64,000 nucleotides of DNA from an uncultured Gemmatimonadaceae bacterium. Its GTDB lineage: Bacteria > Gemmatimonadota > Gemmatimonadetes > Gemmatimonadales > Gemmatimonadaceae. The stretch's first letter is position 1. Each line of letters opens with the position of its first letter. The stretch covers positions 1,984,001 to 2,048,000 of the forward strand of contig CAVUDW010000003.1 of the NCBI GenBank assembly GCA_963740355.1, in the 5' to 3' direction. A program made the position numbers and the translations under genes. The notes beneath the pieces were generated by a model that ran no database searches, was not told where the DNA came from, and saw nothing but the letters and a program-made list of their open reading frames with translations. This document shows positions 28,720 through 36,684 of this stretch, piece after piece.

Positions 28720-28753
28720 AGCGGGCGAGATCACAGTGATCTCGCCCGCTTTT
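28720..28753 (+). terminator. Rho-independent terminator after the M28 gene
   Basis: AGCGGGCGAGATCAC-A-GTGATCTCGCCCGCT perfect inverted repeat followed by a short T run. Confidence 0.7.
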
Positions 28754-28772
28754 CGCGACCGTCAGAGATTGG

Positions 28773-29102
28773 GGGCGAGGCGGGGACACTGTATTCAGTG
28801 TCCCCGCCGGCAGTCAGCGGCGTTTCGACGAGACGTACGAGACATCCTTCTGCCGGAGATTGGGGACACCGAATACGGTGTCCCCAATCGAAAAGGGCGA
28901 GGCGGGGACACTGTATTCAGTGTCCCCGCCGGCAGTCAGCGGAGTTTCGACGAGACGTACGAGGCGTCGTTCTGCCGGAGATTGGGGACACCGAATACGG
29001 TGTCCCCAATCGAAAAGGACGACGTGGGGACACTGGGAGATTGGGGACACCGTATTCGGTGTCCCCAATCGAGGTGGGAGCACTGTCTTCAGCGTCCCCA
29101 CC
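28773..29102. repeat. REPIN/BIME-like array, family B (122-bp period)
   Basis: Two tandem units starting 28773 and 28895, each with GGGGACACTG-TATT-CAGTGTCCCC, a linker and GGGGACACCG-AATA-CGGTGTCCCC, then a further palindrome and degenerate copies. Confidence 0.9.
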
Positions 29103-29348: not shown

Positions 29349-32087
29349 ATGCATTCCCTCGCCGCCGTCGCGGCCGTTTCTCCCAGCCAGTGCGGCGCGC
29401 TCCCTGATCCGACACGGCGTCTTGGCTCACACGTGCCGACGTTCACGGTGTCGCAGGTCCTCGATCGCGCACGCACATCGCCGCATGCCGCAGCGATTCG
29501 CGACGCCAGCGGTCGCACCCTGTCGCTGGGCGACCTCGCAACGGCGTCGGTCGCGCTTGGCGCAGCGCTCACCGGCGCGGGCGTGCGCCGCGGTGACGTC
29601 GTCGCCATCTGGTCGGCGCGCGCCATGTCGCTGCCGTGGGCAATGCTGGGGACGTGGTGTGCGGGCGGTGCCTTCACGGTGCTCGACTCAGGCTACCCCG
29701 CTGCGCGGTTGGTCGCATCGATCGCGATCGCAAGGCCGAAAGCGCTGCTTGCACTCGACGCTGCGGGCCCTGTGCCGGACGAGGTGGTGGACGCGCTCGC
29801 CGCGATCGGCTGCGACACCATCATCCAGCTCCCCGACGCTCCAGCTGATGCATGGCTGTCGCAGACGGCGCACCCCGCAATACTCGATGCACTGACTGCC
29901 GCGGATGCGGCCTATGTAGCGTTCACCTCGGGAACGACCGGGCAACCCAAGGGCATCGTCGCGGGCCACGCGCCACTCGCACACTTTCTCGACTGGCACC
30001 GGCGCACCTTCGAGCTCGGTGTCGATGATCGATTCGTGATGATGTCGGGGCTTGCACACGACCCGCTGCTGCGATCGATCTTCACGCCACTCACCTGCGG
30101 TGGCACGCTGATCGTGCCCGATGCCGCGTCACTCCGCGATCCGACCGCGCTACGCGCACTGCTCTCGGCCGAGGGCGCGACGGTGCTGCACCTCACGCCA
30201 TCGCTTGGCCGACTGCTGGCACACGGCGCAGAGTTCGATCCCATCTGCGATGTGCTCCCGGACATCAGGCGCATCTTCTTCGCGGGTGAGACGCTCTACA
30301 AGTCCACCGTCCAGAAGGTGCGCATCGTGGCACTGAACGCACAGTGCGTGAACTTCTACGGCGCCACGGAAACACCGCAGGCCATGGGATTCTGGGAGAT
30401 CGACGACGAACAGCTCGAAGATGAGTCGTCGTGCGCGGCGATCCCGGTCGGCCACGGCATCGATGACGTACAGCTGTTGGTGGTCGACGCGCAGGGCAAT
30501 CGTGTCGGTGTTGGCGTGCCGGGCGAAATCTGCGTGCGGACAGCGTTCCTCAGTCACGGCTACATCGACCTGCCCGGCGAAACCGCGGCCAAGTTCATCG
30601 TCAATACTGCGACGGGCGATCCGCGCGATCGCATGTATCGCACTGGCGACCTCGGCGCCTACGCCGCTGATGGCTCGGTGACGGCGCTGGGCCGCGCCGA
30701 TCGGCAGTTGAAGGTGCGCGGGTTCCGCGTGGAGCTCGATGAAATCGAGGCGACCATCGGCGAAAACCCGCGGGTGCGACATGTGACGGTGAATGCGGAG
30801 GTGCGCACCGATGACTCGGATCGCCGGATCATCGCACACATCGCAGCGGGGCCAGAGCTGAGCGCTTCGGCCATTCGCAGCGCCCTGCGTGCGCGCCTGC
30901 CTGAGTACATGATTCCATCGCGGATCATGGTGATGCCATCACTGCCATTGACCGCCAATGGCAAGGTCGATCGCGACGCACTGCTGAAGCTCACTGATCA
31001 CGCCACGCCAATCAGCGCTGGCGAGAGTAAAAGCGACAATGCCGCTGACTTCCGCGATATCGTCGAGCGTCGACTGGCCGCCGTCTGGCGCGATGTCCTC
31101 GACGCGCCACGACTGGCTCGCGATGACAGCTTCTTCGATCTTGGTGGCAACTCGCTGCTCGGCCTCGACCTGCTCCTGCGCATCGAGCGTGAGTTCGGGC
31201 GACAGTTGCCCACGCAGACACTCCTGCTGACGCCGACCGTCGCGTCGATGTCGGAATTGTTGCGCGAGGATCGCGACACCACCGCCTCGTTGCTGGTGCC
31301 GATTCGCCCAGGAGGATCGGCGCCGCCGGTGTTCTGGCTGCCGGGTGGTGGTGGCTTGAGTGTGATCGCATTCCGCGGCATCTCCGAGCGCATAGATGCC
31401 GACCGGCCGATCTATGGACTGGAAGCCGATCTCGACATCGAACAGGCCCCGACCACGCTCCCAGCGATCGTGCGTGCGTATCGCGAGGCGATCCAGGCGG
31501 TGCAGCCACATGGGCCGTACCACCTGTTCGGCTTCTCGCTCGGCAGCTTCGTCGCCTACGAACTGGCAGTGCAGTTCCGGGCGATTGGCGAGGAGGTCGC
31601 GCTGCTGGTGGTGTTCGACACTGAAGTCCCAGGCACCAGCGGCCGATGGCAGCGACTGCGGATCGCAACGCACCGGATCATGCGTGCCGTGGGCAGCCTG
31701 CTGCGTCCCGGTGCCGATAGGGCCCCGATGCTCGGCAACATGCGAAGCCGGCTCGTAGGCCTGGCGACACCGCGGCCATCCGAGGTGCCGCCAACCGACA
31801 CGAACCAGAGCGTCTTCGAGCGCATCCGCCTCCGTAACATCGCCGCAGTGCACGCCTACGCTGCCACGCCATTGCCGGAGTTCGATGGTCGGGTGACCTG
31901 TGTGCTGGCTCGCGAGACGTCCAAACACGGGCTGGCGGCCTCCATCGACCCGAGACTGGCGTGGCACCGGACGGCCACCCGCGGAATTGACGTCCACTCC
32001 GTGGGCGGGAACCACCTCTCGATGCTCGAGCCTCCGCACGTCGACGAATTGGCTGGTGTGCTGAACGGATGCTTGGCACGGGCCTGA
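29349..32087 (+). CDS. Stand-alone single-module NRPS-like protein (A-PCP-TE)
   Basis: A domain: AYVAFTSGTTGQPKG, NFYGATET, MYRTGDLG, GRADRQLKVRGFRVEL, PLTANGKVDR. PCP: FFDLGGNSL. TE: GFSLG and GNHLSML. Start uncertain (29304/29349/29433). Confidence 0.9.
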   Translation: MHSLAAVAAVSPSQCGALPDPTRRLGSHVPTFTVSQVLDRARTSPHAAAIRDASGRTLSLGDLATASVALGAALTGAGVRRGDVVAIWSARAMSLPWAMLGTWCAGGAFTVLDSGYPAARLVASIAIARPKALLALDAAGPVPDEVVDALAAIGCDTIIQLPDAPADAWLSQTAHPAILDALTAADAAYVAFTSGTTGQPKGIVAGHAPLAHFLDWHRRTFELGVDDRFVMMSGLAHDPLLRSIFTPLTCGGTLIVPDAASLRDPTALRALLSAEGATVLHLTPSLGRLLAHGAEFDPICDVLPDIRRIFFAGETLYKSTVQKVRIVALNAQCVNFYGATETPQAMGFWEIDDEQLEDESSCAAIPVGHGIDDVQLLVVDAQGNRVGVGVPGEICVRTAFLSHGYIDLPGETAAKFIVNTATGDPRDRMYRTGDLGAYAADGSVTALGRADRQLKVRGFRVELDEIEATIGENPRVRHVTVNAEVRTDDSDRRIIAHIAAGPELSASAIRSALRARLPEYMIPSRIMVMPSLPLTANGKVDRDALLKLTDHATPISAGESKSDNAADFRDIVERRLAAVWRDVLDAPRLARDDSFFDLGGNSLLGLDLLLRIEREFGRQLPTQTLLLTPTVASMSELLREDRDTTASLLVPIRPGGSAPPVFWLPGGGGLSVIAFRGISERIDADRPIYGLEADLDIEQAPTTLPAIVRAYREAIQAVQPHGPYHLFGFSLGSFVAYELAVQFRAIGEEVALLVVFDTEVPGTSGRWQRLRIATHRIMRAVGSLLRPGADRAPMLGNMRSRLVGLATPRPSEVPPTDTNQSVFERIRLRNIAAVHAYAATPLPEFDGRVTCVLARETSKHGLAASIDPRLAWHRTATRGIDVHSVGGNHLSMLEPPHVDELAGVLNGCLARA

Positions 32088-32282
32088 TGGCTTCGATCAG
32101 GCTCCCGCTCCGGCGTGCCTCCAAGCAAGCTCATCTATACACTGGCGCGATGGCGCACACTCCGTCATAATTGCTGAGCCCGGCGCCGCGAGCCGGGCAT
32201 TTTCGATGGGCGGGTGTGTTGCCCCGACGGTAGCTTCGTCGGCGAGCGCGTCCCTCCCGGCTCCTGTCTGGAGCACTCGGCA

Positions 32283-35661: not shown

Positions 35662-36684
35662 CTAGTTGCCCTGCGGCAAACACGGCGACATCGCACTCCT
35701 GGCCGTCTTCGGGTCGCCGATGATGCGATAGAAATCCGCGAAATAGTCGAGCGTGACACGCTTGCGCCGAGCGTCCAAGGCGGGCAGTGAGGCGTAGATG
35801 GCCTCGATGCGCGGGCGGGCGGCGATGAATCGCGCAAAGATCGGCTGCCACTCCTCGATCGGCTTGCACGGTCCGCGGTAGAGGCGGTCGGTCGTGCTGC
35901 GGATGTTGAGGCGCGCATCGGGAAACGAGTAGCGGGCATTCACGGCGCCGCTCCAGTCGAAGTCGAAGGCGACAGTATGTATGCCGCCGACGGAATCCTG
36001 CATCAGCGACACGTTGTGCAAGCCGGAGATCGACCAGTCGGTATTCGCCACCATGAACTCGAAGAGCGATGTGATCGCGAGCTGTGTCGGTTCGAGGTCG
36101 CGGAACATCGCGCCATGACTTTCGAGGAGGTTGAGGCCGAACTTCTTCGCGACCTCCTTGTCATCCTCGATGAAGAATGCCCATGACACCACGTCGTCCA
36201 TGCCACGCGAGGTGTCGTGATACGTGATGCGCGCCAGTCGCGTCCGGAAGTAGTTCGGGCTCACCGCCTGGTATGCCCGATAAAGCGCGTACTCGGCGAG
36301 GATGTACTCCTCATACTCCGCCGTGCCGGGGCGACAGTTGGTGGTGATCTTGAGGTCGGAGTTGCCCTGGAACAGCGTCTCGCGTGCATCCTTGCGCTCG
36401 AACTCGAGCTTCAACGGCGGGAAGCCGCAGTTGCGCGCCTGGCGGCGAAAGTGGCCGCGCGCTCGCAGCGTGACCGGAAAGGTCTTCGTGGTTCCGTTGG
36501 CCTCGCGATACGTCAGCGTCGCCGGATGTGGCTGGAACTTCGTGCTGTCGCGATCGCGGATCACGGCCTTCAACTCGGTGTTGATCGTGACGTCGAGCAC
36601 CGTGGTGTCACGAAACAGTCCCTGCGCCTGGACTTCGAGCGCACCGAGCATCGACAGGCCGATCACGATTGCTTTTCCAATCAT
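35662..36684 (-). CDS. Exported hypothetical protein, CotH-kinase-like
   Basis: Signal peptide; RARGHFR..C.FPPLKLEF, EYALYRAY, FIED, NTDWS..HNV, FDFDWSG resemble CotH atypical kinase motifs; overlaps the DUF4956 gene stop. Confidence 0.55.
   Translation of the reverse strand: MIGKAIVIGLSMLGALEVQAQGLFRDTTVLDVTINTELKAVIRDRDSTKFQPHPATLTYREANGTTKTFPVTLRARGHFRRQARNCGFPPLKLEFERKDARETLFQGNSDLKITTNCRPGTAEYEEYILAEYALYRAYQAVSPNYFRTRLARITYHDTSRGMDDVVSWAFFIEDDKEVAKKFGLNLLESHGAMFRDLEPTQLAITSLFEFMVANTDWSISGLHNVSLMQDSVGGIHTVAFDFDWSGAVNARYSFPDARLNIRSTTDRLYRGPCKPIEEWQPIFARFIAARPRIEAIYASLPALDARRKRVTLDYFADFYRIIGDPKTARSAMSPCLPQGN

Follow-up and report, generated by a model that had tools for sequence, protein, structure and literature searches.

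The window analyzed here is a stretch of 64,000 nucleotides from an uncultured Gemmatimonadaceae bacterium (assembly GCA_963740355.1, contig CAVUDW010000003.1, positions 1,984,001 to 2,048,000). It contains a gene encoding a nonribosomal peptide synthetase (NRPS)-like protein, P0001, which has an adenylation domain (A-domain), a peptidyl carrier protein (PCP) domain, and a thioesterase (TE) domain in one chain, without a condensation domain (C-domain). The gene is real, intact, rare, and stand-alone. Its features are as follows.

An intact stand-alone A-PCP-TE gene

29349..32087, + strand: stand-alone A-PCP-TE gene, 912 amino acids (P0001), from a single open reading frame (ORF) and its Pfam domains
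29304, + strand: alternative start codon GTG, in frame with the A-PCP-TE gene
29466..30965, + strand: A-domain, residues 40-539, code DPRHFAFQAK, catalytic K539 (Pfam, NCBIfam, pocket reading)
30045..30074, + strand: Lys2-type A4 motif SGLAHDPLLR (D238, P239, R242), replacing FDxS (alignment, pocket reading)
31071..31262, + strand: PCP domain, residues 575-638, phosphopantetheine site S602 (Pfam, motif LGGNS602)
31326..32060, + strand: type I TE, residues 660-904, triad S730/D757/H889 (Pfam, comparison with solved TEs)
31335..31376, + strand: TE subfamily signature WLPGGGGLSVIAFR, W663-R676 (alignment of subfamily members)

The A-PCP-TE layout had been read by eye in the original prediction, and translation, Pfam domains, and active sites bear it out. 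The 912-residue translation of the plus-strand frame has no internal stop. Pfam places the A-domain at residues 40 to 405 and 465 to 539, the PCP at 575 to 638, and the TE at 660 to 904 and finds no other family; K539, the carrier serine S602 within LGGNS602, and the triad S730/D757/H889 are all present. In the AlphaFold model of P0001 (mean predicted local distance difference test score of 79, predicted template-modeling score of 0.55), the domains are confident and the linkers loose, and Foldseek with the full model returned ordinary NRPS (termination) modules, such as EntF, at no more than 30% identity. G+C content at third codon positions (GC3) is 0.78, the 36th percentile among 1,005 long ORFs of the genome; a recent foreign origin was considered and rejected, as this value is typical for the genome. 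No promoter was found in a scan around the gene, the terminator-like hairpin at 32178-32198 is no more than chance would give (2 found versus 1.5 expected), and PADLOC anti-phage models gave no family for any of the four proteins submitted. In four DNA sequencing runs, only short matching pieces were found, none of which covers the whole gene; among the sequencing runs listed as containing it, there was none of RNA.

The original prediction had named as a possible objection that the gene might be a fragment of a longer multimodule NRPS in relatives. The conserved stand-alone layout and an orthologue with 58% identity at the metagenome locus L102 rule against this. Ten further proteins of 865 to 1,191 amino acids align end to end with P0001 at 44 to 59% identity, with an invariant TE motif. 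Nineteen protein clusters combine an A-domain with a DPRH code and Gln at pocket position 330 (DPRH-Q), a PCP, and the distinctive TE described below, with no C-domain among the listed Pfam families. Of these 19 proteins, 15 form a group in the A-domain tree together with three cluster-mates, with a support of 93 in the Shimodaira-Hasegawa-like approximate likelihood ratio test (SH-aLRT), and 4 lie elsewhere in the DPRH clade. Because contig context was readable for L102 alone, some apparent stand-alone members may be truncated by the ends of their contigs. The closest relatives of P0001 are stand-alone, and the upstream C-domain that would mark a terminal module was seen neither in the gene nor in a neighboring gene nor in the close relatives. 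Broader searches gave more general matches: an A-core scan of the genome collection, with patterns that were unconserved, yielded relatives at 27 to 40% only; a profile search of 1.84 billion representatives returned mostly multimodular NRPSs; a search for longer proteins, ranked by module number, named no characterized NRPS; and the ESM Atlas gave only generic A-thiolation (T)-TE and TE clusters.

The gene was not found in 60 relatives: no match there exceeds 44% identity, most lie at 28 to 38%, and these matches are other NRPSs. NRPS matches are present in 17 of 19 genomes of the genus, and the A-PCP-TE gene is present in none; a TE-based search of 400 genomes of the phylum did not find it either, the best other match being 37%. 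A gene at 35662-36684, 3.6 kb downstream of the A-PCP-TE gene, is present in all 19 genus genomes, and the region is therefore assembled there. Directly after its counterpart is recC in nine of these genomes and a beta-lactamase-fold gene in eight. With the L102 recC as a query, recC was not found in the genome of the window, which is 94% complete. At L102, the orthologue lies between the counterpart of 35662-36684 (70%) and recC. This patchy distribution, together with the occurrence of most A-domain relatives in C-A-T modules, would suit a relic, that is, a terminal module that lost its C-domain and has no remaining function. We consider this extremely unlikely, because the catalytic residues are all intact, the 11 aligned proteins keep the layout and the TE motif, most of the DPRH-Q stand-alone proteins group on the A-domain tree, and the orthologue occupies the same chromosomal neighborhood in a relative.

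The gene has an M28 peptidase on one side and a weak M12B-like protein on the other; a Ser/Thr kinase, an M20 peptidase, and a beta-lactamase-fold protein are also nearby. As predicted, no C-domain or phosphopantetheinyl transferase (PPTase) is adjacent, and there is none on the whole contig: all five C-domains and the three PPTases encoded in the genome map to other contigs, the PPTases to C1 and C2. These PPTases and the further NRPS/polyketide synthase (PKS) loci of the genome leave room for P0001 to act in trans with a distant cluster, supplying or capping a unit. This is very unlikely, since all five C-domains are in long frames with their own A-domain, none of the 17 genus genomes with NRPS matches has the A-PCP-TE gene, and P0001 has its own release domain. 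The same genome has a second apparently orphan NRPS-like gene, C2:1371578-1374961 (about 1,128 amino acids), with an ordinary FD motif and the code DAAQVGFDAK; its product matches P0001 to residue 910 at 33%. Upstream of the A-PCP-TE gene is one more feature.

28720..29072, no strand: REP-like palindromic repeat cluster, two 122-nucleotide direct copies (97%) and three 37-nucleotide hairpin units (repeat analysis)

Contig C3 has more copies of these repeats at three further sites, one being a pair near C3:2028174-2028283, and the cluster is probably not part of the system.

The adenylation pocket and its relatives

The motifs quoted in the original prediction were all located: SGLAHDPLLRSIFTPL with D238, VLHLTP at 279, IFFAGE at 309, and VNFYGATETPQA at 334. 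D238 aligns with the aspartate of the FSFD motif of LgrA. With positions anchored on these motifs, and numbered by the GrsA scheme, the ten pocket residues read DPRHFAFQAK, the code proposed by hand. The anchoring was checked on other domains, where the same positions return DFWNIGMVHK, the Thr code as printed in the accessible part of PMC3547906. Across the six reading frames of the whole genome, the HDPxxR motif is found a single time, and the four other NRPS A-domains of the genome carry ordinary FD motifs.

The whole protein matches the Lys2 model TIGR03443 better than any other NCBIfam model, with 386 bits, which is below the curated cutoff of 1,030 bits, and the match begins at model position 419 of 1,390. 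When only A cores of 341 to 375 amino acids were scored, seven DxRH-type cores reached 245 to 343 bits (the query, 281), whereas four controls reached 196 to 213 bits and two fell below the listing threshold. These scores and the code comparison given below uphold a Lys2-type pocket. Among the 119 homologues listed, 99 have the DPRH-Q code, 17 have Arg at position 330 (R330), and 3 have other codes. We built a quick tree without bootstrap from 108 A cores, 86 sampled from the matches and 22 from TE-subfamily proteins with a full A core; it contains no fungal Lys2, McyE, or Zmn16 sequence. Within that scope, the phylogeny proposed as a check sets the query apart from ordinary A-domains: one branch separates all 85 DxRH-type rows from the rest (SH-aLRT, 94), and another unites the 69 Q330 and R330 rows (SH-aLRT, 99). 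The R330 group, with its Lys2-like code, nests within the Q330 clade, and Zmn16-type codes form a separate sister branch.

Bushley and Turgeon described in 2010 (PMC2823734, in the portion available) bacterial A-domains that form a sister group to fungal Lys2, lack the reductase, and precede a PF01757 acyltransferase. By its code and tree position, the A-domain of P0001 belongs to this DPRH-Q clade, which is thus already noted in print. Fungal Lys2 (TIGR03443) shares with P0001 the A-domain family, the HDPxxR motif, and a single A-PCP module, and its code, read by eye for Ustilago as DPRHFVMRAK from the alignment in that portion, is identical at 7 of 10 positions. It differs in three ways: it has a C-terminal NAD(P)H-dependent reductase, where P0001 has the TE and no reductase found by Pfam; it has an N-terminal ADA (half-C) domain, whereas the A-domain of P0001 begins at residue 40; and its R330 is Gln in P0001. 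According to the accessible text of PMC7884236, the delta-carboxyl is the site of adenylation by ACV synthetase and Lys2-type enzymes, and the N-terminal ADA domain is critical for adenylation in fungal NPS3. A bacterial precedent for the predicted distal-carboxyl activation, also at 7 of 10 code positions, is A1 of the zeamine enzyme Zmn16 of Serratia plymuthica, with the code DPRHLALLAK and predicted to take aminoadipate (PMC3547906); prezeamine begins with gamma-aspartate, as determined by nuclear magnetic resonance (PMC5811116; both sources in their available portions). This module, which loads side-chain-linked Asp, is compared here by code only and differs in being the first module of a multimodular line with C-domains.

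The Glu module of McyE, a hybrid elongation module, has a DPRH code and loads iso-linked D-Glu. McyE was sought in 121 cyanobacterial genomes; the 25 loci read contain four DxRH domains, none recognized as McyE among the matches listed. A full-text literature search, with thin coverage of subscription journals, image tables, and bioRxiv supplements, found neither a DPRHF or DPRHC code nor a characterized enzyme with the DPRH-Q330 code, and the substrate of P0001 is therefore inferred. By analogy with Lys2 and Zmn16 A1, the two anchors at 7 of 10 identity, both of which use the side-chain carboxyl, the pocket probably takes an acidic amino acid, whether Asp, Glu, or aminoadipate, and activates it at that carboxyl, an extrapolation in the case of the Q330 subtype.

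The same A-domain subtype occurs in other settings. Among 80 metagenome loci with DPRH-Q, 38 have an A-PCP-membrane layout (assigned by a hydropathy rule; Pfam gave PF01757 in five of eight tested), 39 have the A-domain behind other domains or an open 5' end, 1 has the layout of P0001, and 2 have others. The A(DPRHFGFQAK)-PCP-acyltransferase-3 genes are orphans in varied contexts (e.g., L113:9830-12778, L142:9986-12775, and L158:9941-12754, with 35 similar loci). Pseudomonas A-(PCP)-acyltransferase-3 proteins (e.g., NP_744708.1 of P. putida KT2440; PMC2823734, as far as available) have the code DPRHFGFQAK by eye, identical to that of P0001 at 9 of 10 positions, and share with it single-module genes in varied contexts; their acyltransferase is a membrane protein, whereas the TE of P0001 is soluble, with no hydrophobic segment. 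In the A-domain tree, this type is a weakly supported sister of the query group (81). Beyond the 2010 remark in PMC2823734, the literature search found nothing on PF01757 fusions and no functional study.

Three further loci have related codes. L129:66-3191 encodes an A(DPRHFGFQAK)-PCP-sulfotransferase protein of 1,041 amino acids. L099:1-19281, on a Burkholderia gladioli BSR3 plasmid, is a PKS-NRPS cluster whose terminal module has the code DPRHFGCQVK and which also encodes an AurF-like oxygenase and two PhyH dioxygenases. At L101:8223-12259, on a Pseudorhodobacter plasmid, a C-domain frame is followed in the same frame by an A protein of 944 amino acids with the code DMRHFGFQAK; the two are a split or frameshifted module.

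A rather unlikely alternative is that the DPRH-Q330 pocket takes another anion, either an amino acid (e.g., cysteate) whose alpha-carboxyl is activated while R242 binds its anionic side chain, or a small dicarboxylic acid, which the TE then transfers or releases. The Q330 code is very uniform among the homologues, differs at 3 of 10 positions from both characterized neighbors, and is common within C-A-T modules (the 39 loci with upstream domains or an open 5' end), and a review places the related DPRHVSLLAK under Asn-activating domains (PMC12283262, accessible part), all of which would fit such a substrate. However, both anchors of known chemistry use the distal carboxyl, the R330 group is nested within the Q330 clade, and retention of the amine-binding aspartate argues against an amine-free acid.

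A thioesterase subfamily with exchanged loaders

A search with the TE alone gave 63 matches, of which 36 make up a TE subfamily, defined by a score of at least 180 bits on a profile from 11 members; the next match scores 147 bits. P665-G667 and G669 of the signature are invariant, G668 is present in 35 of the 36 members, and 34 members have a Ser nucleophile and 2 a Cys. In a careful TE tree, the 36 members and one long outgroup row are on one side of a 100/93 branch.

Seven kinds of loader are paired with this TE. Nineteen members have a DPRH-Q A-domain, and the other 17 have an acetoacetate-CoA-ligase-like domain (8), a DVRH-type A-domain (3), a Gly-type A-domain (2), an FkbH-like domain (2), KS-AT (1), or a C-domain alone (1). 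On the TE tree, the loaders are intermixed, with nine label changes needed over eight groups, and the PKS member (KS-AT-ACP) nests inside the 99/99 clade of the query. The genes are unclustered wherever the context of the subfamily is readable (the query locus and six others). Among 401 genomes of the order Polyangiales, 5 contain the TE subfamily, at 44 to 50%, all in acetoacetate-CoA-ligase-like genes, and their ORF lists, judged without a family scan, show no evident synthetase cluster. A link to polysaccharide clusters was tried and rejected, as no such cluster is found at the gene, at L102, or, from the same ORF lists, at the five Polyangiales loci. The literature search found nothing on this TE subfamily.

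The Polyangiales genes, with the layout acetoacetate-CoA-ligase-like-carrier-TE, are at L232:9742-13227, L233:9795-13070, L234:9338-13510, L235:582-3794, and L236:9340-13365, and the same layout is seen in the named Pendulispora proteins P0395 and P0396, which come from a cultured host. One subfamily member has an N-terminal acyltransferase-3/HGSNAT domain. Two DPRH members, P0019 and P0029, have an N-terminal SGNH/GDSL domain in which the catalytic His is replaced by Arg in both and the Ser by Ala in one; judging from these replacements, it is probably an inactive binding domain.

Proposed transfer to an outside acceptor and its alternatives

Our preferred explanation, which we hold tentatively, is that P0001 uses ATP to attach an acidic aminoacyl group, in omega linkage, to an outside acceptor. 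S602 would be primed by one of the three PPTases encoded elsewhere in the genome. By analogy with Lys2 and Zmn16 A1, D238 would hold the alpha-amine and R242 the free alpha-carboxylate, so that the distal carboxyl would be adenylated and loaded. S730 would then accept the acyl group from S602 and donate it to a small molecule or glycan, at either an amine or a hydroxyl. The predicted product is an omega-linked amide or ester, with the acceptor gene elsewhere than at the locus. We favor transfer because the same A-domain subtype is elsewhere coupled to an acyltransferase or a C-domain and because the same TE serves loaders that bring no amine to cyclize.

Several points weigh against this explanation. 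No acceptor gene is conserved alongside in the genome of the window, at L102, or at the five Polyangiales loci. Among solved structures, the closest to this TE, 7CRN and Pks13, are type I TEs of the ordinary kind, and a TE common to many loaders may just be unselective. On the side of the A-domain, P0001 has Gln in place of the second arginine of Lys2 (R330) and lacks the ADA domain, the literature search named no characterized Q330 enzyme, and the A-domain tree was quick and lacked the fungal Lys2, McyE, and Zmn16 rows.

The main rival, possible but doubtful, is that P0001 is a self-sufficient enzyme with the same side-chain activation, whose TE either cyclizes the loaded unit to a lactam (Glu to 5-oxoproline, aminoadipate to 6-oxopiperidine-2-carboxylate, or, as an extreme case, Asp to a beta-lactam) or links units into an iso-linked dimer or oligomer. 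Wherever its context was read, the gene stands as an orphan, which suits a product made by one enzyme from one substrate. The layout, likened by description, is that of stand-alone A-T-TE NRPS-like enzymes encoded by one gene, such as those of the TdiA, AtrA, and RalA type and BpsA with its added oxidase. In such enzymes, the TE makes the product, and both BpsA and the keto-acid dimerizing synthetases work self-sufficiently. The keto-acid dimerizing synthetases have, however, lost the amine-binding aspartate at position 235, whereas P0001 keeps D238, and BpsA has an oxidase domain, whereas P0001 has none. Furthermore, five- and six-membered lactams form from such thioesters without a TE. The acetoacetate-CoA-ligase-like, FkbH, and PKS loaders in front of the same TE are predicted to deliver amine-free acyl groups, which weakens the lactam or oligomer outcome that the original prediction had included, although hydroxy-acyl loaders could likewise yield oligoesters.

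The layout and the A-domain clade are each known, and their combination, as well as the TE subfamily with exchanged loaders, appears undescribed in the literature searched. It is conceivable, though we regard it as uncertain at best, that the gene belongs to an undescribed single-gene acyl-transfer family in which one TE recognizes a common cellular acceptor and the loader has been swapped repeatedly. If so, the swapped loaders would be Lys2-type, DVRH-type, and Gly A-domains, acetoacetate-CoA-ligase-like and FkbH domains, and KS-AT, and one target would receive a range of small polar acyl groups, in the present case an acidic amino acid in omega linkage. A shared TE that transfers acyl groups from exchangeable loaders would represent a small-scale but new enzyme logic and might be put to use for forming iso-peptide or ester links. 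P0001 would then also be the simplest handle on the widespread DPRH-Q pocket, sister to Lys2, which NRPSs of rarely cultured soil and sediment bacteria often carry (99 of the 119 matches listed). As a soluble single-module protein of 912 amino acids, it offers the easiest route to assigning the DPRH-Q code, and an assigned code would improve product prediction for many clusters and bear on the origin of Lys2.

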